From: a virus
Taxonomy: Duplodnaviria > Caudoviricetes
Strand: one strand, 5' to 3'
IMG/VR virus record: IMGVR_UViG_3300042997_002652
Coordinates: 64,001-128,000 of that record
DNA: 64,000 nucleotides
In this document: positions 1-54,753 of the stretch, piece by piece
How the letters are laid out: each line of letters starts with the position of its first letter
Position numbering within the stretch: position 1 is the stretch's first letter
Made by a program: the position numbers and the translations under genes
Notes under the pieces: model-generated
Told to the model about the DNA's origin: nothing
Seen by the model: the letters and a program-made list of their open reading frames with translations, nothing else
Database searches by the model: none

Positions 1-671
1 GCATTAGCTCCCAATGATGCTAATGCTAAAGCACCCCCTGCTACAACGTCTTTCCAGCCCTCCGCTACACCTTCTTCATTTACTTGATCACCAATAATAC
101 CGGCATCTAACATTTTTACTGCTACATCAGCCAGCTTTTTGTTTTGTTGTGTTCTAGGGTATAAACTCATTACCATTGCTAATTTTTGTCTTTCGTTTAA
201 GTTAGGCCAAGCGTTTCTTATTTCTGTCGCGCTTTTAATACCGGGTCCAAACTCAATAGTCGGTAAGTATTCCATGTAAGCATGTTTATTAAAAGATTCT
301 AAATTATCGGGATCATATGGTTGAAAGTATGAAGGTGATCCATCTTTTTTAGTACCACCGGGCTTAGGCTGTTCGTCTCTATCTTTTTCGCTTCTAACAA
401 ATATTAATACATCTTGTTCAGGATTATATTTTTGAGTAATTTCTTCAGCTTTGAAAGGACTTTTTACTTGAACAAATTGATCAGGATTAACTCCAGCTAA
501 TTGTGCTAGTTTCTTTTTAATTTCAAAAGGGAACGGACGAGTTTTGGTATCGTTAGTAGCTGCTAAGTATACATCAGCATCAGGAAACTTTTCTTCTGCT
601 GCTTTAAACAGCGAATAATGTCCTGCATGATACGGGTGATAGCCACCTGGAAGTACTACGATCTTTTTCAT
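1..671 (-). CDS. HxGH nucleotidyltransferase (cytidylyltransferase-like); 3' end runs off the window
   Basis: Not in the ORF track. Hand translation from ATG at 671: MKKIVVLPGGYHPYHAGHYSLFKAAEEKFPDADVYLAAT...KSATEIR...VNEEGVAEGWKDVVAGGALALASLG. Contains the PGGxHPxHxGH signature and an SATEIR (KMSKS-equivalent) motif; open to position 1. Confidence 0.8.
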   Translation of the reverse strand, partial: MKKIVVLPGGYHPYHAGHYSLFKAAEEKFPDADVYLAATNDTKTRPFPFEIKKKLAQLAGVNPDQFVQVKSPFKAEEITQKYNPEQDVLIFVRSEKDRDEQPKPGGTKKDGSPSYFQPYDPDNLESFNKHAYMEYLPTIEFGPGIKSATEIRNAWPNLNERQKLAMVMSLYPRTQQNKKLADVAVKMLDAGIIGDQVNEEGVAEGWKDVVAGGALALASLGAN

Positions 672-679
672 GTTAGTCC

Positions 680-1048
680 TTAATAAGAAATTTTAACATA
701 TTGTACAACGCCGTTAGCAAAGTCTTTTATCTTTGCTCTCATATACACAAAATTTCCAGTAATATTTTGATATGCGTTTATTGTACTGTTTGTGTTGGAA
801 TTGTTATCAGCTTCTACTTCATAAACCTTGAACCAATCACCTGATCCCGGTTCAGTAGCAAGAGTAGCTTCAATTTCTAAGTTACCAGTGACATTTGTAA
901 AACTATAAGTTATAGTTTGCAAGTCTTGATTACCCAAATAATAAGCAGCGGCGGGTTGAGCATTACCAGTAACAGTATACACATTAGCGGTTCCGCCACC
1001 GTCGTATGTAGTTTGCGGTAATAGAATGAGTGTAGAAGTTTGTGACAT
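680..1048 (-). CDS. Hypothetical beta-rich protein, probably virion-associated
   Basis: ORF track; resembles the C-terminal domain of 47635..48402 (xIEAT/xIQGS...W..GNFVYMR/GFHPFVR). Confidence 0.6.
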   Translation of the reverse strand: MSQTSTLILLPQTTYDGGGTANVYTVTGNAQPAAAYYLGNQDLQTITYSFTNVTGNLEIEATLATEPGSGDWFKVYEVEADNNSNTNSTINAYQNITGNFVYMRAKIKDFANGVVQYVKISY

Positions 1049-4202: not shown

Positions 4203-4994
4203 TTATTTGGTTGTTCTTTCTAAATGATCGTTAATAGCTGTAGTTATTTCATGACTTATATTATCAGGCATATAAGGTTTTAGCAAGATAAATTGGTCTC
4301 CGTATCCATTTTTTTTATCGGGCATACCTGCTTTGGGTATTTTAAGTTGCATATAAGGTTGTGTTTTGGGATTTATTTTAACTTCTAGAATTCGTTGATC
4401 TATTGTTGTAAACTTAAACTTAGTACCAACTATTAAATCTAATATAGAAATGGAATAGTGAGAGTACAAATCATTTCCTTTTCTGTCAAATCTCAAATCA
4501 GGTAAAACAACAAATTGCACTAACAATATTGCATTTTCTATTACATCGTCATATCTAATAGAATCTCCGGTTTCAATTCCTGGAGGTACATTAATATTTA
4601 TTATTTTACTACCAGAATGAGTAGACAACTGCAAAACATGTGTAGATCCTTTAAAAGCATCTACTAATGACACACTAACTTGAGTTTTAAATGTTTGTTT
4701 TTGATTATGGGCATAGTTGTGTTGTCTACCTCCGAAAAACTGACTAAAGATAGTATCAAATTCAGCGGAATTCATATTAAACCCAAATTGCTGCTGATTT
4801 CTAGATGGGTTATCGTACTGTTGTCTTTTTATTGGGTCGCCCAATGTATCATATGCTTCTTGGATTTTTTTGAATTGAACATCATCTCCGTTATTTCGGT
4901 CAGGATGATATTTCATAGCTAATTTTTTATAGGCTTTTTTGATATCTTCTTGAGAAGATTTATTGTCTATGCCTAATATTGAATAATATTCCAT
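4203..4994 (-). CDS. dnaJ: DnaJ/CbpA-like J-domain co-chaperone (class B, no Zn finger)
   Basis: YYSILG...[18 protein letters not shown]-domain with HPD; C-terminal substrate-binding domain (G-GDQFI). Confidence 0.9.
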
Positions 4995-4999
4995 TGTTT

Positions 5000-5028
5000 A
5001 TTATACAACACGATTTAGATAATGTCAA
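5000..5028 (-). promoter_or_regulatory. sigma70-type promoter of dnaJ-clpA, apparently leaderless
   Basis: TTGACA-17-TATAAT; ATG 5 nt downstream of the -10. Confidence 0.85.
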
Positions 5029-7433: not shown

Positions 7434-8363
7434 TTAACTCCCTGTTAGCTCAGCAAGTGTAGCTGCTAAACTTATTTCAGGTATACCCACAAGAGGAAGA
7501 CTAGCCAAGCCATTTCTAATAGTGATAATAGACTGATCTTTCTTATCGTTAGTCTTACCCCAAAGATCAAGATTGTTGTACATCCACCGATATGTATTTT
7601 CTACTCTTGTTGGATAAAGAGCAATGTACTGCATTAGTTGCTGTCTACCTTCAAGAATCTTACCTGTTTTAAATAACTGTGCAGCTTGAGTCAATAACTC
7701 TTCTTCACCATTACCTTCAGAATGAGGAGGTTGTAATTTTCCTGTACCTGAGTTAGCTTGTAGCTGATTCAAACACTTGCGCAAATCTGGATAACAGCCG
7801 CGAACATAGCTATCTAAGTCTTCTAGTGTAAAATCTATGTTTTCGGTAACAAGAACCGTTGCTGCTCTAGCAGTAAATTCAGTAATATCAGGTTTTGCAA
7901 TGTGAAACTTAGTACATCTGCTTTCTCTTAGTGCAGGAATAATCTTGTGCTCATAGTTACAAGTAAGAATAAATCTTACTGTATTAGCATAAGCTTCCAT
8001 ATCGTTTCTAAGTGCTGCTTGAAACTCAGGAGAAGTGTAATCAGCTTCGTCTAGCAAGATAACTTTGAATTTACCAAAAGGCATTGTTTCAGCAAAGTTA
8101 TTGATTTTAGTTCTAACAATACCTACGCCGTTATCTCTAGAAGCGTTAATCTCCATTACATCGTATTCTTCTACGCCAAGCTCTTTGATTAGAACTTTTG
8201 CCAGTGTAGTCTTACCGGTGCCTGGATCACCGGATAACAGTAAGTGAGGGATCATTCCATCTTTGATCCATTGATTAACGATTTGTTTTTGTCTTTCATC
8301 AACAAAAACATATTCATTTACAGATTTAGGCCTGTATGCCTCAACCCAAAGTCTATTCTTCAT
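7434..8363 (-). CDS. gp44: Sliding-clamp loader large subunit (T4 gp44/RFC-like)
   Basis: LWVEAYRPKS, GDPGTGKTT, EINAS, ILLDEAD, FILTCNY, SRC. Confidence 0.93.
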   Translation of the reverse strand: MKNRLWVEAYRPKSVNEYVFVDERQKQIVNQWIKDGMIPHLLLSGDPGTGKTTLAKVLIKELGVEEYDVMEINASRDNGVGIVRTKINNFAETMPFGKFKVILLDEADYTSPEFQAALRNDMEAYANTVRFILTCNYEHKIIPALRESRCTKFHIAKPDITEFTARAATVLVTENIDFTLEDLDSYVRGCYPDLRKCLNQLQANSGTGKLQPPHSEGNGEEELLTQAAQLFKTGKILEGRQQLMQYIALYPTRVENTYRWMYNNLDLWGKTNDKKDQSIITIRNGLASLPLVGIPEISLAATLAELTGS

Positions 8364-8366
8364 TAA

Positions 8367-8672
8367 TTATCTCTTGATTGCTTCGTATGTTACAATGTGT
8401 GCTAGTCTCTCACCCAAATCTTGTTCGGATGTAACTATGTATAAACTGGTTTGACTGTCGTGGTTTTTATCATAACTACGTGTTTCTACTACATGCCCGC
8501 CGTCAGCTTTGTACACAGTAAACCTAGTACCGTTAGAGTCAATAGAATCAACTGACTTAGGCGATAGTGAATTTGCTATTGAAGGTCTATCCCCTCTTGT
8601 TTTTTCGTATTCACGCGCATTTTCCCACGCTTCACGGCACATATTTGCAAACCATTTCTTAAAAAATTTCAT
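8367..8672 (-). CDS. Hypothetical protein
   Basis: ORF track, operonic. Confidence 0.6.
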   Translation of the reverse strand: MKFFKKWFANMCREAWENAREYEKTRGDRPSIANSLSPKSVDSIDSNGTRFTVYKADGGHVVETRSYDKNHDSQTSLYIVTSEQDLGERLAHIVTYEAIKR

Positions 8673-9070
8673 TAGATTCCCTTATCACTCATGTTATAGT
8701 CTTCAACTTTTTCATCGCTTACTAATAGTATATCTTTATTGTCTACTTTGCGAACAATTTGGACACCTTCAGCGTCTTCAATCTTTACACCTCTAGTCCA
8801 TCTTCCGTGTGCGATATAAATCCATTTCCCGACTTCTAAATCTTTTTGATCTGGACCGATCGCATAAACTCTAGCCCAACGAGGTCTGATACCAGAATTT
8901 TTCATATCATCATTTGGAAGAATAAGACCTGCATGACTCAATCTTTCACCAAATTCCATTTGATGAACAACTACAGAATCTTTAAGAGGTAAAAACTCTT
9001 CTACTTGAATAGCATTCGTATTTTTAGCTGTTAACATAATATCCTTACTTAATAATTGCCAAAATTTCAT
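8672..9070 (-). CDS. groES: Divergent GroES-like co-chaperonin
   Basis: FLPLKDSVVV...AGLILP...ARVYAIGPD...EVGKWI...DILLV; true start probably the second Met (~9037). Confidence 0.75.
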   Translation of the reverse strand: MKFWQLLSKDIMLTAKNTNAIQVEEFLPLKDSVVVHQMEFGERLSHAGLILPNDDMKNSGIRPRWARVYAIGPDQKDLEVGKWIYIAHGRWTRGVKIEDAEGVQIVRKVDNKDILLVSDEKVEDYNMSDKGI

Positions 9071-9332
9071 CTTCTTGTAGAATGCGGTACTCTTGATCTT
9101 CTACTTTTACTACTTGACCCGCGCCTTGAACGAAAAGAACTTTGTCACCCTCATTAACTCCGGGTACTACAAAAGTGCCATTTTCTAAATAAGTTCCAGG
9201 ACCTACAGCAATTACGATACCTTGATTAGGTTTATCTGCTGCCGCGCCTGCTAAGATAAGACCGCCTGCACTCTTTTTTATTGTTTCAACTTCTTTAACT
9301 ACTATTCTGCCTTGTATTGGTTTAATCTTCAT
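9045..9332 (-). CDS. groES: Canonical GroES co-chaperonin
   Basis: MKIKPIQGRIVV...KSAGGLIL...GIVIAVGPG...GDKVLF...EDEILAII. Confidence 0.93.
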   Translation of the reverse strand: MKIKPIQGRIVVKEVETIKKSAGGLILAGAAADKPNQGIVIAVGPGTYLENGTFVVPGVNEGDKVLFVQGAGQVVKVEDQEYRILQEDEILAIIK

Positions 9333-9674: not shown

Positions 9675-10181
9675 CTATTTTAAAAACTCATTAATTGATA
9701 TTTGATAGTATAAACTATTTATCCTATGTATCCCTATTAGATATAAAACAAAACTAGCAATACTACTACCTCTACCTACACCCCATACTATGTTATGTTT
9801 ACGCATAGTGTCTACTAAATATTTTAAGTATTGAAGAAGAATAAACATGTCTCGTTCTTGAAACATAATCAGTTCTTCTCCTGCGCGTTGTAATTCTTCA
9901 TCAGTTTTGCATTGCTCTAAAATCCATTTAGCAATATCAAAATTTTTATATTCTTCAGGCATGAACCATTCGGTTGATCTTATGTTGTCAAATTCTTCAA
10001 TAGTTTGGTCACTGGTTTGATATTCAAGAAGTTCTGGTAGTTTTTGTAAATCTAGTTCTGAATCAAAGTTAATTACTTCTTTTACAAGTAATGATTTTAA
10101 CTGCCGAGTAGGGTCAGTCATGTACAAATTACATATGTCTTTTTCGTTAAAGATGTGCTGACCGAAGTTATCAATAATCAT
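9675..10181 (-). CDS. dnaE: DNA polymerase III alpha (DnaE)-like N-terminal fragment
   Basis: EELQRAGEELIMF...LVDTMRKHNIVWGVGRGSSIASFVLYLIGIHRINSL...EFLK matches the DnaE segment RLxxEL...GPGRGSxAGSLVAYxLxITxxDP...FERFL. Confidence 0.85.
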   Translation of the reverse strand: MIIDNFGQHIFNEKDICNLYMTDPTRQLKSLLVKEVINFDSELDLQKLPELLEYQTSDQTIEEFDNIRSTEWFMPEEYKNFDIAKWILEQCKTDEELQRAGEELIMFQERDMFILLQYLKYLVDTMRKHNIVWGVGRGSSIASFVLYLIGIHRINSLYYQISINEFLK

Positions 10182-10187
10182 TGATTG

Positions 10188-10216
10188 ATGATATATTAAT
10201 TGTAAGTTTATGTCAA
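10188..10216 (-). promoter_or_regulatory. sigma70-type promoter, apparently leaderless
   Basis: TTGACA-17-TATCAT; ATG 6 nt downstream of the -10. Confidence 0.75.
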
Positions 10217-45204: not shown

Positions 45205-46623
45205 TTAATTATTCTTTAAGGAGTTTAGCATGTTTCTTAGCTTAGAACCTTGAACATCTGCTACTACTTTTTTCTCAGATTGTTGAATTTCACCAGTGTT
45301 AGCATCAATAGTTTCATTTTGAGATACTGTACTTACAGTTTTAATTTTGTTCATAATATCTGTAGCGGATTGACGATACCCAGCATTTTCATCACCGCCT
45401 TCATCTGTAATTCTCATAGTATCAATGTTATATTCTAAGTCAATCTTTTGACCAACACCAGTAGAACTACGTGATTTCATACACTGAATTTGATACTTGC
45501 CTCGCTCTTTCATTGATCTGCTAGTAAAGATACCAAACACATAGTCAGCAGTGTTAATCTTAGAAATACCACCTGCAATATGACTATGATCAAATTCAAT
45601 TTCTTCTACAGCCGATCTGTTTAGCTGTGATGCTGTAACCATTAAAACACCTAACTCTTTAGACAAGTTTCTTAATTCTTCACTAACATACTTGTCTTTG
45701 ATAAACTGATCATTAGGATTTACTTTAACACTAACAGGCATTACTAGATCCAAGTAATCAATCATTACAAAGTCTATTAGCATACCTGTTTGTATTTGTA
45801 CTTCTTTAATATAACTTCTGATTACGTTTACGTTGCTTTGTGCAGGAAGACCTTTAACACGATACTTACCTGACTTTTTAGCAGCCATTTTTACTTTTAA
45901 TTCTACTGTGTCTAAGTCTTTACGAATATCTTTAGTGCTCATGCTAGTTAACATAGCATCAGTTCTTAAAGCCGTTAGCTCTTCAGACAATTCAAGTGTA
46001 ATATAAACACCGCTTAATCCTTGTGCTAAAAAGTTCACAGCCAAGTTCATCATTACAAGTGACTTACCTGATCCTGAACCACCTGCAAAGATGTTTAGTT
46101 CGCCCCTAGACATACCACCATACATAACTTTGTCTAGTTGAGGCCACCCTGTGCTTACTTGACCGCCTTGATTAAAGTATCTGTTTAATCGTTCTTTAGG
46201 ATCAGCAAAGTAATCTGTACCATAATCACGCATTAAAGAAATTTGTACCGCATCTTTGATCAGTTTTTCAACTGGATCATATTCACCCTTTTCTAATAAC
46301 TCTGCTGCTTTTAAGATTGCTCGTTCTAGTTCTTGTCTTTTTGTAAAGTGTTCAAACTCAGTTAAGAAAAACTCGGTATGCCCTGCTGAGTCAAGTTCAG
46401 GGATTAGTTCAATTTCTATACCAGTAGTAGCTTTGATTTGCGTAGGATCAGGCAACACATTGTATTTTTGTGAATGTTCTACTATAAACTCTGCTGCCGC
46501 CCTAACTGATCTGTCAAAGTTTAGTGGGTTCATGATGTTCATTACCCTAGTATATAACTCAGGGTTAGTGATCATCATACGCAAAAATAGCGTTTGTACT
46601 TCGGGGTTAAATTCTTTTAACAA
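45205..46623 (-). CDS. gp41: Replicative DnaB-family helicase (T4 gp41-like)
   Basis: GELNIFAGGSGSGKSL, MIDYLDL, VTASQLNR, IAGGISKINTAD, KSR; TTG start. Confidence 0.93.
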   Translation of the reverse strand: MLKEFNPEVQTLFLRMMITNPELYTRVMNIMNPLNFDRSVRAAAEFIVEHSQKYNVLPDPTQIKATTGIEIELIPELDSAGHTEFFLTEFEHFTKRQELERAILKAAELLEKGEYDPVEKLIKDAVQISLMRDYGTDYFADPKERLNRYFNQGGQVSTGWPQLDKVMYGGMSRGELNIFAGGSGSGKSLVMMNLAVNFLAQGLSGVYITLELSEELTALRTDAMLTSMSTKDIRKDLDTVELKVKMAAKKSGKYRVKGLPAQSNVNVIRSYIKEVQIQTGMLIDFVMIDYLDLVMPVSVKVNPNDQFIKDKYVSEELRNLSKELGVLMVTASQLNRSAVEEIEFDHSHIAGGISKINTADYVFGIFTSRSMKERGKYQIQCMKSRSSTGVGQKIDLEYNIDTMRITDEGGDENAGYRQSATDIMNKIKTVSTVSQNETIDANTGEIQQSEKKVVADVQGSKLRNMLNSLKNN

Positions 46624-47596
46624 GTTTTCGTTTCCTCATTTCTATTTTAATTTTGCTCATAGTTGCTGATTGTATAATACTTAGCAACACAGGTAATTTA
46701 CCATATTTTACTACAGCTTCGTTTACATCTTTAATTGGTTTACCTTCATTGTTCAGTCCCCATTCAGGTAAGCTTATTTGATATCCTAGCTCCATAGCTA
46801 GATCACATAACTCTAATCCTGTTTTGTCTTGATCAGGAACTACTATAATAGTTCTGTTTAACCTTCTTAACAATTCTTGTTGTTCTAAACTGATTGTACT
46901 GGTACCCAAAGCACAACCATCTATACTTAGTGCATCAAATATACCTTCAACAACGATGCAAATAGACCATTCAGGTTTTTGAAAGTCATAACCAAACAAA
47001 TATCCTGTTGGTTGATCATTAAGATACTTTGGTTTTCTATCGTCTAAAAATCTACTTGTATTACCAACAATCGTTCCTTTGTATGTAAAAGGAACAATGA
47101 TTCTGTTTGAGTTTCGTCCGATATCTTCCGTAGTAACTAAAAAAGGATATTCATCGTGTTTTATTTTTCTATTATTTAAGTAGTCTATAAATCTAGTGTG
47201 TTTTGAATTGTTAATATCTAACACTTCACTATTATCGGGAAGTTCTTTTTCTTTAAAGTTGATAGCTACATTTCTTACTGCGGGTGTAATATAGTCTAAT
47301 ATATCTTTATTTTGTAAACTTTCTAAACCGATCTTTGTGATCAAGCTTTCATCAGCGCCGCACCATTTTAGAAATAATTTAGTGTTTGTAGATAACGGTT
47401 TACCCAACTCAAATCTACATTTGAAATGGCAGTTAAAGCAACTGTATGTAAAGTTGTAGTTGTCTTTGATTAAACCGCCACGCATTCTTTTATCGGGCTT
47501 ATGTCCACGATAATGACAACAGGGTGAATTAAATGAAACCCAGCCCTTTGCTGTTGTTTTTCTTTTGCCGGGAATAATTGTTAATATATCAAACAT
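46607..47596 (-). CDS. gp61: DNA primase (gp61-like, Zn-binding + TOPRIM)
   Basis: PCCH...YSCFNC Zn domain; IVVEGIFDA; VVPDQD; KDVNE. Confidence 0.85.
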   Translation of the reverse strand: MFDILTIIPGKRKTTAKGWVSFNSPCCHYRGHKPDKRMRGGLIKDNYNFTYSCFNCHFKCRFELGKPLSTNTKLFLKWCGADESLITKIGLESLQNKDILDYITPAVRNVAINFKEKELPDNSEVLDINNSKHTRFIDYLNNRKIKHDEYPFLVTTEDIGRNSNRIIVPFTYKGTIVGNTSRFLDDRKPKYLNDQPTGYLFGYDFQKPEWSICIVVEGIFDALSIDGCALGTSTISLEQQELLRRLNRTIIVVPDQDKTGLELCDLAMELGYQISLPEWGLNNEGKPIKDVNEAVVKYGKLPVLLSIIQSATMSKIKIEMRKRKLVKRI

Positions 47597-47634
47597 TCAT
47601 TGATTATAGCAGATTTCTATAATAAATCAAGACA

Positions 47635-48485: not shown

Positions 48486-48866
48486 ATGAGTGCAGAAGAT
48501 TTTTTCAAAAAATTAAGTGATAATCACCCGTTTATAACTGTGTGTCATTATGCCAGCCAAGATTATGTAGGTATAGTACAAAATCGGGACGATATAGTTA
48601 CCTCTATTTACGATTATGGATCAATAGTAGAGATAGGACTAAAAGAAAAGTTTTTAGAACTAGGTGACATTTGGTGGTGGGAATCAAATAGACTTATACC
48701 AATCAATATATTTTTGAAAGAAGATTGGGCCGTGTTCAAGCCATACTTACGAACATTTAATAACAAAAGTTTAGCAATATTACACGGACCTACTGTCAGC
48801 ATGACTGATTTAGGTAAGCGTAGATCAAAAAGAAGATCAATTACTTTAGTTAAACGCCTTTTCTAG
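48486..48866 (+). CDS. Hypothetical late protein
   Basis: ATAAATA at 48471-48477; protein-like composition. Confidence 0.7.
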   Translation: MSAEDFFKKLSDNHPFITVCHYASQDYVGIVQNRDDIVTSIYDYGSIVEIGLKEKFLELGDIWWWESNRLIPINIFLKEDWAVFKPYLRTFNNKSLAILHGPTVSMTDLGKRRSKRRSITLVKRLF

Positions 48867-48869
48867 CTC

Positions 48870-49361
48870 TTATCTTTTTTCTCTTATCTTTTTTCTCTTT
48901 TCTTTTGCTCGTTCTAGTACAAGCTTGCCTACTCTATCATCAAAGCATATAGAATTTAAATGATCCAGCTCATGCTGATAGACCCTAGCCATTAAACCAT
49001 TAAATTCTTGTTGTACTTTCTCACCAGCAACATTGTAATACTCTACTGAGATATCTTTGTATCGTTCTACATACATCCAAAGATCAGGAAAGCTCAAGCA
49101 TCCTTCTTGCTCTCTCACTCTTTCGCTACCTGAGATAATTTCTGGATTGATACATGCTACTAAATGATCAGAATTACCCATAACAAATATGCGTTTAGCA
49201 ATACCGCACTGAGGCGCAGCTAAACCTATGCCGTTATGTAAAACCATTAGCTTGGACATAGCCTTAACTAATTCACTGGGATCACCGTCTTTTTCCCAGT
49301 CCCACGATTCAGCTACTTCTCTTAGTACTTCGCTATCTTCAGGTATAAGTTTAAGATCCAT
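48870..49361 (-). CDS. def: Peptide deformylase
   Basis: GIGLAAPQ, EGCLS, QHELDHL motifs intact. Confidence 0.96.
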   Translation of the reverse strand: MDLKLIPEDSEVLREVAESWDWEKDGDPSELVKAMSKLMVLHNGIGLAAPQCGIAKRIFVMGNSDHLVACINPEIISGSERVREQEGCLSFPDLWMYVERYKDISVEYYNVAGEKVQQEFNGLMARVYQHELDHLNSICFDDRVGKLVLERAKEKRKKIREKR

Positions 49362-49932
49362 GTTGTTCCTCTTTTATTAAATTCATATGTACGGCAACCA
49401 ACCATGCATAACCCAAACTATGTGACTTTTTAAAGCTATAGCCATCACTGCCTTTGTCCCACACTGTTTTGTTTACTTCTTGCCAAGTTTTTCCTATCAA
49501 ATGACGTTTCGCTGGTCTTATTACTGCTAAGAACATAGCTAACCGTGGTATACTATCTATTGGTTCAGGCATCTTTCTAATCGTATCATACTGACCATTC
49601 AAGTGTATAAGTTGTTCTACTATATCTCGCTTAGTTAGCATAGTCCAATCAGGTTCACGCATCAAACTAATCAAGTGTTCTTCACTTTTTACTTTTTCGT
49701 AAACGTGAACATTTAAGATATCTAACTTAAAGTATCCCCTTTCTTCTGCCTCTTCATAAGAAATAGCTGCAATTTCATTTATAGGATCATATGGTATGTT
49801 GCATGGATATATACCAGAAGCGTGTTTTCTAATAGGTGTAATATTACGCATAGAAGCAGGTATATGTTTGATCTTTTCCAAGATCAAATCTCTATTACCT
49901 ACGTCAATGTCTACGTCAAAGTTTAATTTCAC
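49351..49932 (-). CDS. dnaE: Miniaturised DnaE-like catalytic core (palm + partial fingers)
   Basis: FDVDID, RKHASG, AEERGYFKLDIL, LAVIRP, YSFKKSHSLGYA; GTG start overlapping the upstream stop. Confidence 0.85.
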   Translation of the reverse strand: MKLNFDVDIDVGNRDLILEKIKHIPASMRNITPIRKHASGIYPCNIPYDPINEIAAISYEEAEERGYFKLDILNVHVYEKVKSEEHLISLMREPDWTMLTKRDIVEQLIHLNGQYDTIRKMPEPIDSIPRLAMFLAVIRPAKRHLIGKTWQEVNKTVWDKGSDGYSFKKSHSLGYAWLVAVHMNLIKEEQHGS

Positions 49933-50495
49933 GGTTTCATTAATCCAGCGGCTATTAACTTTTGATAAGCATCTTGTACTACAATCGCTTGATGTTCGGC
50001 GTCTTCTACTGCATTGTGCGTAGTTTTAGTACCATACTTTTTATCTTTTAGTTTCACACCGGCTATTTCAAATAGTGTTCTAGTGTCTCTTACTGTATAG
50101 AAAGGCCATGGTATTGGATTTGGTTTATCAGTTAAAGTTTGTCTAAACGCTGTTTCCATAACTACTACGTCAAAAGGGGCACCGTTTGACCACACAGCAT
50201 CTTGATTCCAACAATAATGATATAACACTTCCATGCATTCTTTTAATGACATTCTACCCTGTTCATTAAACGCTGCGTTTAGTGCTTCAGGAGATTGTTG
50301 CGACCACCATCTGAGAGTATCTTCATTAATGATTCTGTTATATACTTCAGTTTGATCTTCAATAGTAGGTTTTAGTTCTAATCTATCAAGCACACCAGTT
50401 CCTTTTGGGTTAAACTTTACTACACCAATAGTAAGAATAACACAATTGGGTGATGTGTCTAAAGATTCTATATCTATCATCAAATGAGAGGGCAT
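49929..50495 (-). CDS. DEDDh 3'-5' exonuclease
   Basis: LMIDIES (ExoI), WSNGAPFD (ExoII), HNAVEDA (ExoIII). Confidence 0.9.
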   Translation of the reverse strand: MPSHLMIDIESLDTSPNCVILTIGVVKFNPKGTGVLDRLELKPTIEDQTEVYNRIINEDTLRWWSQQSPEALNAAFNEQGRMSLKECMEVLYHYCWNQDAVWSNGAPFDVVVMETAFRQTLTDKPNPIPWPFYTVRDTRTLFEIAGVKLKDKKYGTKTTHNAVEDAEHQAIVVQDAYQKLIAAGLMKP

Positions 50496-50496
50496 A

Positions 50497-50796
50497 TCAT
50501 TCCCATCTTAGTTTAGCTAACATATATTCTTTATCGGTCTTTAAGTAAATAGCGCGTTTGCTGTCCTTGCTATCGTTAGCCCAAGCCCATATTGGCCAGT
50601 CTTCGTCATGTGCCCAAGCATCGTGTAACTCATAACTACGTCCCCAAATTACTTCACACCATTGTCTAATTTCATTAAACGTCTTGATTTGGTCCCGAGA
50701 ATTCATACCATGAGTCTCTATCATATATTGATAAATATTACCGCCGTTGTATCTTCTGTCTATCTTTTTAAATGTTATTATTCGCATAGTTTCCAA
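50497..50796 (-). CDS. Small hypothetical protein, xLRWE-terminal family
   Basis: Ends KEYMLAKLRWE; true start probably MRIITF. Confidence 0.65.
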   Translation of the reverse strand: METMRIITFKKIDRRYNGGNIYQYMIETHGMNSRDQIKTFNEIRQWCEVIWGRSYELHDAWAHDEDWPIWAWANDSKDSKRAIYLKTDKEYMLAKLRWE

Positions 50797-51029
50797 TGGA
50801 CATATATTTTATCGTTTATTGTAACACGTTTACTAGTCAACCACCAATCTTTTAGGTAACCTTTGTTAGGATATTTTTCCCATAACCAATCTTCTAAAGC
50901 TCTAGTCCAGTCACACTGAATAAAGATTTGTTCTTGCCATTCATTATTAATGAAAATCTTTTTCCTGATTTTTCGGTTGGTAGGAACATAATCAATTATG
51001 TCTACATGATCGTAATAATTGAAACCCAT
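50778..51029 (-). CDS. Small hypothetical protein
   Basis: Ends KIYVHWKLCE. Confidence 0.65.
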   Translation of the reverse strand: MGFNYYDHVDIIDYVPTNRKIRKKIFINNEWQEQIFIQCDWTRALEDWLWEKYPNKGYLKDWWLTSKRVTINDKIYVHWKLCE

Positions 51030-51293
51030 TTATTCCCACCTCAATAAAAACCATTCATAATCTTTAGACTGTTCAAACGCTATACGATTATCAAACCAAC
51101 GATGTTCACCTATAGTGTTTTGTTTTACCCATTCTATCACTTCATCAAGTTGCTGATAAGAAATTATTGCACCATGCCACCCACTTGTGATACACAAATT
51201 GTATAATAACTCTTGATCTAAACGATTACGAATATTATTCGCCATCTCAGTTAGAATCTCATCATGCTCGTTTTGTGACAAGCTCATTCCCAC
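51030..51293 (-). CDS. Small hypothetical protein, xLRWE-terminal family
   Basis: Ends KDYEWFLLRWE. Confidence 0.65.
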   Translation of the reverse strand: MGMSLSQNEHDEILTEMANNIRNRLDQELLYNLCITSGWHGAIISYQQLDEVIEWVKQNTIGEHRWFDNRIAFEQSKDYEWFLLRWE

Positions 51294-51508
51294 CTCAGTT
51301 TAAACCAAATTCTATGTTCTTCTATTGGTACATACCAAATATCAGATATACTAAACAATTCGGAACCTTGGTATTCTATCTTTATATCACAATCTTCAGC
51401 CCACTTCCAAACTTGTTTTCGCATGGTCCAATGTGAACATACTAAACAACTTTTGGGTATGTTTAGTTGCTTTGATACATCATCTAATGAATATATCTGT
51501 TCGCTCAA
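51284..51508 (-). CDS. Small hypothetical protein, xLRWE-terminal family
   Basis: Ends EHRIWFKLRWE. Confidence 0.65.
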   Translation of the reverse strand: MSEQIYSLDDVSKQLNIPKSCLVCSHWTMRKQVWKWAEDCDIKIEYQGSELFSISDIWYVPIEEHRIWFKLRWE

Positions 51509-52221: not shown

Positions 52222-52780
52222 CGGTTACAATAGTGCTCAACAATTCTATTTCGTCTAATTTTAGTGTTGGGAATTTTTTAGCTAGTACTACTTTCTTTTT
52301 GTGTTCAGTAACAAATACTTCTGCTACTTCTGCTATGTCTCGTTCACTGGCTGTTGGGTATATCTTTTTATAGTAGTCTTGAATCTCTTTAGTTTTAGCT
52401 GCTTCTTTAAGTAAGCTTACTTTTTCACCTATCTTGGGTATCCATTGATGAAACTGTTTCCCCTTGCCTGGGCTAGCAGCACACAACATTAACCATTGTA
52501 GTTTTGGATGAGAATGTTCTTTACTAGCAATCATATGATCTAGCAAATATTTGTTAGCATAATATTCTGTGCTTTGCAAATAATATCGTTGTAAATCTTT
52601 ATTGCCTTTAATAGCACTCATCCATTGTACTAACAAAAATGGTACAAACTTTTTCTGCTGTTCGGGAGTTAACCTGTCAAAAAAGTCATAGTCTTTTTTG
52701 TCCAACGCTTCTAAAGTTTTGAACAGATCCAAATCTTGATTTTCAAAAGTTTCGTCTTTTGGTACAGATTTTTTAGCCAT
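52181..52780 (-). CDS. Probable clamp-loader small subunit (gp62-like)
   Basis: FVPFLLVQWMS...ANKY...HPKLQWLMLC...KQFHQWIP pattern. Confidence 0.55.
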   Translation of the reverse strand: MAKKSVPKDETFENQDLDLFKTLEALDKKDYDFFDRLTPEQQKKFVPFLLVQWMSAIKGNKDLQRYYLQSTEYYANKYLLDHMIASKEHSHPKLQWLMLCAASPGKGKQFHQWIPKIGEKVSLLKEAAKTKEIQDYYKKIYPTASERDIAEVAEVFVTEHKKKVVLAKKFPTLKLDEIELLSTIVTDDELNQYERDSGN

Positions 52781-53283
52781 TAAAAGACTTTCCCGTAATC
52801 AACTACTTCACAGTTTCTGCTAATCTCTTTAACAAAATATAAGCATCGGGGCTTTTCGCTATCATCAATGGGTACACATAAAAACTGACCATTTCTAAGT
52901 CTAGGCGAAAACCAAGTTACATCTTGATAAATGTCTACAATCTCTATAGGAAGAAAATCGGGCGCATAAGAAGTAAGAGGATTAAATTGAAACGCATTAA
53001 ATCCTCTGTCGTTTACACTAGACAAGGGAAGAGTTTCTAAATCACCGTGTTCAGATTCTCCAATTAAGATTTGCCAATCTACTGGCATTTTAATTTTTCT
53101 ATTACCCACTTGTAAAACTACAGCAGGCGAGTTAAAAGACTCTAAAAATATCAGAGGTATAAAATAAAAGTCTGGATTATTTGGATTAGAGTTATCTAAT
53201 ATTGCAAACTGAAGATCGTCTATTTCTTCAGGTAATGATTCTAAATTGTAACAACTGTTTACATCTAAGTTTAATATTCTCAT
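52780..53283 (-). CDS. Hypothetical beta-protein, possible Hint-like fold
   Basis: AVVLQVGNRKIKMPVDWQILI and IEIVDIYQDVTWFSPRLRNGQFLCV strand pattern. Confidence 0.5.
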   Translation of the reverse strand: MRILNLDVNSCYNLESLPEEIDDLQFAILDNSNPNNPDFYFIPLIFLESFNSPAVVLQVGNRKIKMPVDWQILIGESEHGDLETLPLSSVNDRGFNAFQFNPLTSYAPDFLPIEIVDIYQDVTWFSPRLRNGQFLCVPIDDSEKPRCLYFVKEISRNCEVVDYGKVF

Positions 53284-53298
53284 ATTGATATTATATCT

Positions 53299-54753
53299 CT
53301 AATAGTCTAATTTTTCAATACTAAACGGATAAGAAGCTTCTTTGTAAAAAGCTTTTCTTTGGGTAAGGTGCCTTTTAGAAAACTTACAATCGCTAGTTAT
53401 ATCCCAGACGGCAACATGATCTTTATCCTCTGCCATGCGCAGACCCCTGCCTATGCTTTGTATTACTCTTACAAACGACTTACCAGGTTCAAGCATAACA
53501 ATGTTAAACAGTCTAGGTACATTAATACCCACGGCTGCAACACCGTATGTGCAAACCAATATTCGGCCCTCACTCGTTCTAATTTCATCATACTCTTCTT
53601 TCCTCTCTGTTAATTTCATTTCTCCAGATACAAATACTGAGTTAGGTAACCTTTCTACTAACTCTTTACCTGCACTGATTCTGTCAACTAGCACTAATGT
53701 ATTGCCGGTATCTTTGATTTTATCAATCAGTTTAGCAATAGTATCTAGTCTAAGTTGATCGGTGGTTAAAAATTTCAATTCACTTTGATAGTCTTTGTAT
53801 TCTTTGCCGTCTTTTAGCTGAACAATGTTTACATGACACTGTGCAAGAACGCCTTGTTCTTGTAATTCACTGGCTGAAAGCTTACCAACAACCGGACCTA
53901 GTGACACTAACAATGATAGTTTGTCAAAGTCAGCTTTTGGAATAGTACCAGTTAAGCCCCAACGAATTGGCACTCGTGATAGCACACCAGTAAGTAAGTC
54001 TTTTAAAACTTCTGCTTTTGCTTGGTGCACTTCGTCAACGATCACGCATACTACGCCTTCAATAAAATCGTTGATAGTAAAATCAGCGTCACCTGATTGT
54101 GTTGCTTTTAACAGATTGTTCAATGATTGCCAAGTACAAATAGTATGAGTTTTGTTTAGTTCTTTTCTATCTCCAAAATAAACACCAACATCAAGACCTA
54201 AGTTAACATAGTCTTCTTCTGTTTGTACTACTAATGATTTGTTTGGAACGATAACGATTGATCTACCATATTGTTCTACTGACAAAGATAGTGCAGCCGT
54301 TACTAAAGTTTTACCTGCGCCTGTTGCTGCTTCTTGCAATGATTGCGGATTAGCTAAAAAGGTATTTACAATCTCTACTTGATAATCTCTAAACATAATA
54401 GACTCACCTTCTTTAACATGACCTTTAGGCCAAGTTTTATTAGCAAAGGTATCTTCTTTTATTTGTTCAAATTGAAATGTAGTTTTGTAAGTGCGTAAGT
54501 CTTCTAGTTCAATATCGTAATTAAAGTTATCAATGATAGGGATAATTTGATCTAGTAAATTAATATGAGTGGCGCCACCTAATGAAAAGTAGCTGATCTT
54601 ACCATTCCATCTACCCAGACGAACACTAGGCAAGTACCTAGCACCGGGTTTTTCCACTTCAAATTTTTTCATCAACGCTTTACGAGCATCAAGTTCTAAT
54701 CCTTGAATTTTAACATTTACTTCATCGGTTATAATTATTTTAGCTGTTTTCAT
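53299..54753 (-). CDS. uvsW: SF2 DNA helicase (UvsW-like)
   Basis: FRDYQ, AATGAGKT, VDEVH, GLTGT, VGINVP, QSIGRGLR. Confidence 0.92.
   Translation of the reverse strand: MKTAKIIITDEVNVKIQGLELDARKALMKKFEVEKPGARYLPSVRLGRWNGKISYFSLGGATHINLLDQIIPIIDNFNYDIELEDLRTYKTTFQFEQIKEDTFANKTWPKGHVKEGESIMFRDYQVEIVNTFLANPQSLQEAATGAGKTLVTAALSLSVEQYGRSIVIVPNKSLVVQTEEDYVNLGLDVGVYFGDRKELNKTHTICTWQSLNNLLKATQSGDADFTINDFIEGVVCVIVDEVHQAKAEVLKDLLTGVLSRVPIRWGLTGTIPKADFDKLSLLVSLGPVVGKLSASELQEQGVLAQCHVNIVQLKDGKEYKDYQSELKFLTTDQLRLDTIAKLIDKIKDTGNTLVLVDRISAGKELVERLPNSVFVSGEMKLTERKEEYDEIRTSEGRILVCTYGVAAVGINVPRLFNIVMLEPGKSFVRVIQSIGRGLRMAEDKDHVAVWDITSDCKFSKRHLTQRKAFYKEASYPFSIEKLDY

Follow-up and report, generated by a model that had tools for sequence, protein, structure and literature searches.

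Two distant genes of an uncultured jumbo phage probably encode the halves of a minimal Pol III alpha-like catalytic core

Introduction

Previously, Iyer, Anantharaman, Krishnan, Burroughs and Aravind (2021, Viruses 13:63; PMC7824862) reported that group 2.2 jumbo phages possess a 'minimal, split DNA Pol III alpha' alongside a family B polymerase, and they suggested that the two proteins reconstitute a complete enzyme and may cooperate with the family B polymerase. The two genes that we analysed belong to the same families (phrog_11127 and phrog_11778), show the same division into an NTP-binding N-unit and a Mg- and template-binding C-unit encoded by distant genes, occur in the same phage group (the relatives are Rak2/GAP32/121Q-like phages, PA5oct and Atu_ph07) and are likewise accompanied by a family B polymerase, an RFC-type clamp loader and DnaB. 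Nothing essential separates the two systems, and the phage studied here is another, uncultured member. Since the same architecture was described in that work, the split Pol III alpha is already known, and the original prediction made for this locus rightly cautioned that surveys of jumbo phages may already report such modules (Iyer et al., 2021; PMC7824862). In PHROGs, JGI and some GenBank/RefSeq records, at least one of the halves already carries the name DNA polymerase or Pol III alpha. What was not found in Iyer et al., 2021 (PMC7824862) and is added here are natural fusions of the two halves, a quantitative structural match, a conserved leaderless promoter of the N-terminal half and a conserved convergent neighbour. 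In the papers searched we found no experiment or biochemical data on any member, and no mention of fused forms.

The bacterial C-family polymerases DnaE and PolC (E. coli 2HNH, Taq 3E0D, M. tuberculosis 5LEW and G. kaustophilus PolC 3F2B) have the same palm and GS loop, the same three catalytic aspartates, the same lysine before the third aspartate and the same RP and KSH finger motifs as the phage proteins. However, they consist of one chain of 1100-1400 residues, whereas the two phage chains have 168 and 193 residues.

Two further systems are relevant to a polymerase that is encoded in pieces. In cyanobacteria such as Synechocystis and Nostoc, DnaE is encoded by two distant genes, dnaE-n and dnaE-c, that carry split-intein segments, and full-length alpha is produced by protein trans-splicing; the ligation site is located far downstream, in the fingers. 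In contrast, the phage halves have no intein and are cut in the palm, and their chains must remain non-covalent; the position of the split is unlike that of the cyanobacterial DnaE, as had been predicted. In phiKZ-like jumbo phages, the catalytic core of a biochemically characterised multisubunit RNA polymerase is made of several polypeptides from dispersed genes. This is a precedent for a split polymerase core, but the fold (double-psi beta-barrel) is unrelated and the phage group is a different one.

Results

The stretch of DNA that was analysed (the window, 64 kb) comprises bases 64001-128000 of a 267-kb IMG/VR virus record with 36% G+C and a completeness estimate of 76%. The two genes under study are 39 kb apart in the window, each with its own start and stop codon:

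9675..10181, minus strand: N-half of the split minimal Pol III alpha, 168 aa (PF07733, phrog_11127)
49351..49932, minus strand: C-half of the split minimal Pol III alpha, 193 aa, GTG start (phrog_11778)

The N-half ends in ...GVGRGSSIASFVLYLIGIHRINSLYYQISINEFLK* and the C-half begins with (M/V)KLNFDVDIDV, in which five residues precede DVDID. The ends given in the original prediction (GVGRGSSIASFVLYLIGIHRINSLYYQISINEFLK for the N-half and MKLNFDVDIDV for the C-half) were literally correct, and both ORFs are on the minus strand. A second in-frame stop codon is present seven codons past the stop of the N-half, and TAA, TGA and TAG each end long ORFs, which makes read-through or recoding of the N-half stop unlikely. 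A megablast search of the N-half region against isolate phages gave no match, indicating a phage without a close cultured relative.

Single-sequence searches of the PDB were uninformative for both halves (best E 0.14 for the N-half and only chance lectin matches for the C-half), and profiles were therefore needed. The N-half matched positions 16-94 of the 260 positions of PF07733 (DNA_pol3_alpha, Pol III alpha NTPase domain) with an E of 1.2e-8, above the curated cut-off, and it matched phrog_11127, annotated as 'DNA polymerase', with an E of 1.2e-39. A profile built from 29 N-halves aligned to residues 320-392 of E. coli alpha and 383-454 of Taq alpha, and the loop GVGRGSS (G134, V135, G136, R137, G138, S139, S140) was invariant across all 29. 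Residues ~62-168 correspond to the first part of the palm with this loop. They are preceded by residues 1-61 (window 9996-10181, minus strand), a small, clade-variable and confidently predicted alpha/beta unit that is kept in the subclade of the window and in SCTP-2 and is replaced in PA5oct and the Rak2-like phages.

The C-half matched phrog_11778, also annotated as 'DNA polymerase' (E 6.8e-56), and gave no match when searched alone against Pfam. A profile of 88 C-half relatives, with identities down to 28%, aligned to E. coli alpha with an E of 2.9e-5 in three colinear pieces:

Piece 1: E. coli alpha 399-418, MPDFDVDF
Piece 2: E. coli alpha 538-641, ..LVKFDFLGL.. to ..ALFRPG
Piece 3: E. coli alpha 739-767, ..GYGFNKSHSAAYALV

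The C-half thus holds the remainder of the palm and the core of the fingers. Its motifs are DVDID (D6, D8, D10), FKLD (K69, D71), IRP (R139, P140) and FKKSHS..Y. Residues D6, D8, K69, D71 and P140 were invariant in the 88 relatives, and D10, R139, K142, H171 and A176 were kept in at least 90% of them. In the profile alignment D6, D8, K69 and D71 fall on D401, D403, K553 and D555 of E. coli alpha, where D401, D403 and D555 are the known catalytic triad, and the finger motifs IRP and FKKSHS align to residues 636-641 and 756-765. As predicted, the GRGS phosphate loop and the metal-binding aspartates are on separate chains, with GVGRGSS invariant in the N-half and D6, D8 and D71 invariant in the C-half.

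Profile and fold comparison placed the end of the N-half at E. coli alpha ~392-393 and the start of the C-half at 399. The two halves therefore abut within about 5 residues, and the expectation that they would abut almost exactly was borne out by both kinds of alignment. The cut had been described as lying at the palm boundary; it is located inside the palm, between the helices of the GS loop and the strand with the DxD motif. Neither end at the junction has extra sequence, and natural fusions bridge it with only ~10 residues, which agrees with the predicted lack of an intein.

The two proteins are also much shorter than their bacterial counterparts within the aligned range. About 33 residues of the C-half replace residues 418-538 of E. 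coli alpha, which comprise the thumb and the remaining part of the palm insert; for 641-739 there are only about 10 residues, and everything past the equivalent of residue ~773 is absent. No PF02811 match, which would indicate a PHP domain, was found; the structural match begins only at E. coli alpha 274-275, and residues 1-61 are too short to be a PHP domain. PF17657 (fingers) had no match in the genome. Compared with DnaE and PolC, the parts missing in the phage enzyme are the PHP domain, the thumb, ~100 residues of the fingers, the distal fingers, the clamp-binding module with the beta-clamp motif, the HhH and OB modules and the tau-binding tail. What had been called a DnaE-type polymerase split into two genes is rather a drastically reduced module of palm and core fingers than a full DnaE cut in two.

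An exhaustive representative search with the C-half revealed one protein of 375 aa, P0272, in which both halves are joined in a single chain. Its residues 191-372 correspond to the C-half (44% identity between the C-half of the window and this part), and residues 64-180 to about the last 115 residues of the N-half (39% identity, E 2e-17). The junction reads ..NIKEFIK-DNKEGIYNIA-DFDIDT.., a linker of 10 residues exactly where the proteins of the window end and begin. PF07733 matches P0272 continuously over residues 97-207, across the junction (E 4.8e-16). Two more fusions of 376 aa, P0392 and P0393, were found in the ENA and Logan collections, and the three are 78-81% identical to each other. 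Loci of the fused forms are:

L008:1066-2193 and L009:519-1649: single-chain forms of 375-376 aa

As the contigs of P0272 and P0393 stem from different samples, the fusion cannot be an artefact of assembly. The three fusions formed one clade with a support of 100 in a maximum-likelihood phylogeny of 88 C-half sequences, and this clade was nested, with a support of 96, among split forms whose upstream gene is not an N-half. Midpoint rooting of this tree, in which the root is not established, suggests a secondary fusion of the halves. The closest split C-half (L010, 200 aa) was considered as an intermediate with adjacent halves and was rejected, as the gene upstream of it is not an N-half. The fusions are rare, and we found no mention of them in Iyer et al., 2021 (PMC7824862).

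The natural fused form, a homologue of the chains of the window and not their complex, was modelled with AF2. The model had a mean pLDDT of 84 and a pTM of 0.77, with residues 81-375 mostly above 85; only three sequences covered the N-part, and residues 1-80, which were of low confidence, were left uninterpreted. Foldseek gave 19 matches at E <= 0.001 with this model, all of them C-family polymerases. With VIA-align, residues 77-375 superposed as a single body on structures of DnaE, Pol III alpha and PolC:

M. tuberculosis DnaE1 (5LEW): Z 22.0, rmsd 3.1 Å, 288 residues, chain 303-800
Taq Pol III alpha ternary complex (3E0D): Z 21.9, rmsd 3.1 Å, 290 residues, chain 292-830
PolC (3F2B): Z 20.7, rmsd 3.3 Å, 286 residues, chain 635-1288
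E. coli alpha (several entries): Z 14-16, rmsd 3.3-3.7 Å, 289-293 residues, mostly 270-773
CCA-adding enzyme, the best match outside the C family: Z 3.8, rmsd 4.4 Å, 103 residues, chain 1-124

Across the DnaE1, Taq alpha and PolC matches the Z was 20.6-22.0 and the rmsd 3.1-3.3 Å for 284-290 residues, so that ~290 residues of the bacterial enzymes superpose at 3.1 Å on the fused-form model, a likeness to solved DnaE structures that is partly built into the training of the predictor. In the model of the fused homologue, palm and fingers are held in one rigid arrangement, and palm strands are formed by residues 145-149 (just before GRGS), 192-196 (DFDID) and 255-260 (KIDLL). If these strands form one sheet, as they do in solved Pol III alpha, the split version would build this sheet from both chains. 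The N-half of the window was modelled separately with a pLDDT of 85, and its residues 62-168 superposed on E. coli alpha 275-393 with a Z of 9.8 and an rmsd of 2.8 over 97 residues.

We determined whether the two halves occur together in other phages, which had been named as a check on the original prediction. In the genome of the window exactly one match to the profile of each half was found, and no further paralogue at E <= 1. All five large IMG/VR records with an N-half (5/5) carry exactly one C-half, and exactly one of each is present in the complete isolate genomes of SCTP-2, PA5oct, Atu_ph07 and GAP32 (4/4). The halves are thus co-conserved, with one copy of each in all nine related records and, including that of the window, in 10 of 10 genomes. 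In these four isolates the halves are on the same strand, 34 to 182 kb apart. In all genomes checked except one the halves share a strand, with a gap of 34-51 kb in six genomes including the window (for one of them if the map is taken as circular) and a larger one, 116-182 kb, in SCTP-2 and Atu_ph07. In the IMG/VR record behind locus L035 (G003, a 181-kb fragment) the N-half at ~128,960 (plus strand) and the C-half at 357-920 (minus strand) are 128 kb apart and on opposite strands, which means that the genomic arrangement of the halves is not fixed. A tblastn search of isolate phage records detected the N-half in 101 and the C-half in 96 records, with near-identical counts per host genus; four Clostridium-phage records matched the N-half only. 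Both halves are present in ~100 isolate jumbo phages, namely Rak2/GAP32/121Q-like phages, PA5oct, Atu_ph07 and SCTP-2. In metagenomes each half forms more than 7000 clusters at 90% identity, with very uniform lengths.

Both genes are surrounded by replication genes, and this synteny recurs in PA5oct, GAP32, Atu_ph07 and SCTP-2. The order on the side of the C-half is UvsW-like helicase, small genes, exonuclease, C-half, deformylase, small convergent gene, phrog_1084 protein, primase and DnaB-like helicase, and on the side of the N-half it is N-half, a 112-aa protein, GroES, a gp31-like protein and a gp44-like clamp loader. The main neighbours are:

7434..8363: gp44-like clamp loader
45205..46623: DnaB-like helicase
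46607..47596: Toprim primase
48486..48866, plus strand: small convergent gene, 126 aa, phrog_11637, with the basic C-terminal tail KRRSKRRSITLVKRL
48870..49361, minus strand: peptide deformylase (PF01327, E 6.6e-40), between the C-half and the small convergent gene
49929..50495, minus strand: Rv2179c-like DEDDh 3'-5' exonuclease (PF16473, E 1.2e-34)
53299..54753: UvsW-like helicase

A PF00136 match identified a family B polymerase, encoded by a 912-aa frame that lies ~10 kb ahead of the window. The TGA stop codon of the exonuclease overlaps the GTG start of the C-half (GTGA), and in three relatives with 65-72% identity the exonuclease adjoins the C-half or is located 1-2 small ORFs away. In the annotations of PA5oct, Atu_ph07 and GAP32 the C-half has no exonuclease next to it; among these, the upstream gene was compared by sequence in PA5oct, where this candidate was rejected as it had no similarity to the exonuclease. 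The association of exonuclease and C-half is therefore at most specific to the subclade. Likewise, the deformylase was found at the same place in relatives with 65-72% identity and is absent there in PA5oct, GAP32 and Atu_ph07. The small convergent gene was positioned tail-to-tail with the C-half in every clade examined (PA5oct, Atu_ph07 and GAP32), and also with the fused gene in L009. A search of atlas features with its protein returned no named family; it is possible that this protein is a partner of the mini-polymerase.

Two further observations were made among the neighbouring genes. Between the N-half and the clamp loader there are two consecutive GroES-type genes (8672-9332, minus strand), a phrog_3188 co-chaperonin and a gp31-like 'head morphogenesis' protein. 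Upstream of the exonuclease, four short overlapping genes of 74-99 aa are present at 50497-51508 (minus strand), three of which end in ..LRWE; their sequences, for which no family match was obtained, suggest a tandem family of small paralogues.

The N-half had been predicted to have a sigma70 promoter of its own, and a TTGACA-17-TATCAT sequence was indeed found upstream of it, which is conserved in homologues. A second site was found ahead of the gene string that contains the C-half:

10188..10216, minus strand: sigma70-type promoter of the N-half, TTGACA-17-TATCAT (11/12), with the -10 hexamer ending 6 nt before the ATG
53290..53318, minus strand: candidate promoter of the C-half transcript, TTGAAA-17-TATAAT (11/12, consensus match), 6 nt before the ATG of 52780..53283

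Promoter-like sites in the region overall were not above chance (15 vs 13 ± 4). Despite this, the N-half promoter was accepted because of its positional conservation in 73 distinct upstream regions of N-half homologues, taken from viral contigs at 50-67% protein identity. A promoter score of at least 10/12 was obtained in 47 of these 73 regions compared to 6 of 400 control ATG sites. The -10 hexamer was exactly 6 nt from the ATG in 56/73 and 5-7 nt from it in 64/73, and an extended TG was present in 38/73. As the hexamer ends only 6 nt before the ATG and no Shine-Dalgarno sequence was found upstream of this ATG, a leaderless mRNA is predicted for the N-half, made by the host sigma70 RNA polymerase. 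This promoter is consistent with the TTGAC/TATAATA promoters that were mapped at transcription start sites of PA5oct (PMC7318152). For the C-half, the site at 53318 is the nearest strong sigma70-like site upstream, and the minus-strand genes between 53283 and 48870, among them those for the exonuclease, the C-half and the deformylase, adjoin or overlap one another. The motif TATAAATA of T4 late promoters was not enriched, and none was found near either half.

Discussion

The adjacent homology of the two ORFs, their co-conservation and the rare natural fusions that are joined at this very point argue that they are halves of one C-family core, as was originally proposed. We consider it very probable that the two genes encode one minimal, non-covalent two-chain catalytic core of the Pol III alpha type. 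The heterodimer, its polymerase activity and its biological role are what we infer from the observed homology, motif conservation, co-occurrence and natural fusions and from the predicted fold of the fusion. The halves would be translated separately and then assemble non-covalently. The N-half would contribute the first palm strand and helices together with the GRGS loop, by which the incoming nucleotide is held at its triphosphate. The C-half would contribute the strands on which the three metal-binding aspartates are located, as well as the conserved lysine and the RP and KSH motifs, with which the fingers touch nucleotide and template. As the cut runs through the Pol-beta-like fold, neither half is expected to be active alone.

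The lack of a PHP domain, thumb, clamp-binding, HhH and OB modules, together with a T4-type replisome in the same phage (family B polymerase, clamp loader, primase, and DnaB- and UvsW-type helicases), indicates that an accessory polymerase is most likely, and not the main replicase. Its role would likely be short-patch synthesis, for example in primer extension or repair. With the thumb and all modules that bind the duplex or the clamp missing, template-directed and processive synthesis is not assured. That the split enzyme is active as a DNA-templated DNA polymerase is plausible, and we consider it slightly more likely than not.

The same reduction raises the question whether the heterodimer forms but is a nucleotidyltransferase of another kind, for example one that works as a terminal transferase without a template, tails RNA or primers, or makes nucleotide signals. 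This would fit the loss of the thumb, HhH, OB and clamp-binding parts, an aligned range that ends at E. coli alpha 773, the absence of a PF17657 match for the fingers in the genome, and a common core of only 284-293 residues compared to spans of ~500 residues in DnaE and 470-650 in PolC; moreover, the Pol-beta-like NTase palm is also found in many enzymes that are not polymerases (weak matches at Z 2-3.8). However, the retained RP and KSHxxxY motifs are specific to C-family polymerases and invariant or nearly so, the only strong structural relatives are replicative polymerases, and the genes keep a conserved place among those for primase, helicase and clamp loader. We therefore regard a different nucleotidyltransferase as rather unlikely. 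It is most improbable that the ORFs are what is left of a decaying full-length dnaE, or that they encode independent proteins with no joint function, although they are small, are separated by 39 kb and the C-half alone has no Pfam match; thousands of clusters of uniform length with invariant catalytic residues, a one-plus-one copy number in 10/10 genomes, the existence of natural fusions and the conserved dedicated promoter of the N-half all speak against decay.

More than two subunits may be involved, with the product of the convergent gene and, in this subclade, the exonuclease adding DNA binding and proofreading in a multi-subunit mini-replicase. The small gene with the basic tail is kept tail-to-tail with the C-half from Atu_ph07 to GAP32 and also with the fused gene, and the stop codon of the exonuclease overlaps the start of the C-half, with the exonuclease near the C-half in relatives at 65-72% identity. 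Yet synteny in phages is weak evidence by itself, the small gene is encoded on the other strand and belongs to no recognised family, the annotations of PA5oct, GAP32 and Atu_ph07 show no exonuclease adjoining the C-half, and Rv2179c-like enzymes are named as exoribonucleases, all of which makes additional subunits unlikely in our view. Taken further, the mini-Pol III could be the catalytic centre of an unrecognised multi-subunit accessory replicase, with the convergent-gene product as DNA-binding subunit and the exonuclease as proofreader of the subclade, and it would extend primers made by the adjacent primase-helicase and then hand over to the family B polymerase; the fusions would then be a secondary re-fusion. 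Such primer extension would resemble that by DnaE ahead of PolC in Bacillus subtilis, and the fused forms would offer a ready single-chain version for biochemistry. This proposal is speculative, and we hold it decidedly unlikely.

The two-chain core that we favour is the smallest known natural version of the core of a bacterial replicative polymerase, and it is common in metagenomes. If active, it would define the minimal requirements for C-family catalysis, would show that two chains can together form a Pol-beta-like fold and would be a model for an ancestral enzyme, as proposed by Iyer et al. (PMC7824862). The natural fusions and the cultured members (PA5oct, GAP32, 121Q and Atu_ph07) make a biochemical test straightforward.

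It had also been suggested that assembly of the enzyme could be timed by separate promoters. The two halves belong to separate transcription units, but we obtained no support for differential timing: both appear to depend on the same sigma70 class of promoter, and no late motif of the T4 type is near either gene. The conserved leaderless promoter of the N-half is a clean and testable regulatory feature. A similar layout, with sigma70-like -35 and -10 hexamers, a spacing of 5-6 nt to the ATG and no Shine-Dalgarno sequence, was observed before the primase gene (47603-47630, minus strand), before the gene at 4203..4994 (5000-5028, minus strand) and before that at 52780..53283 (53290-53318, minus strand). 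Judged by these upstream sequences, leaderless early transcripts may be general for the replication genes of this phage.
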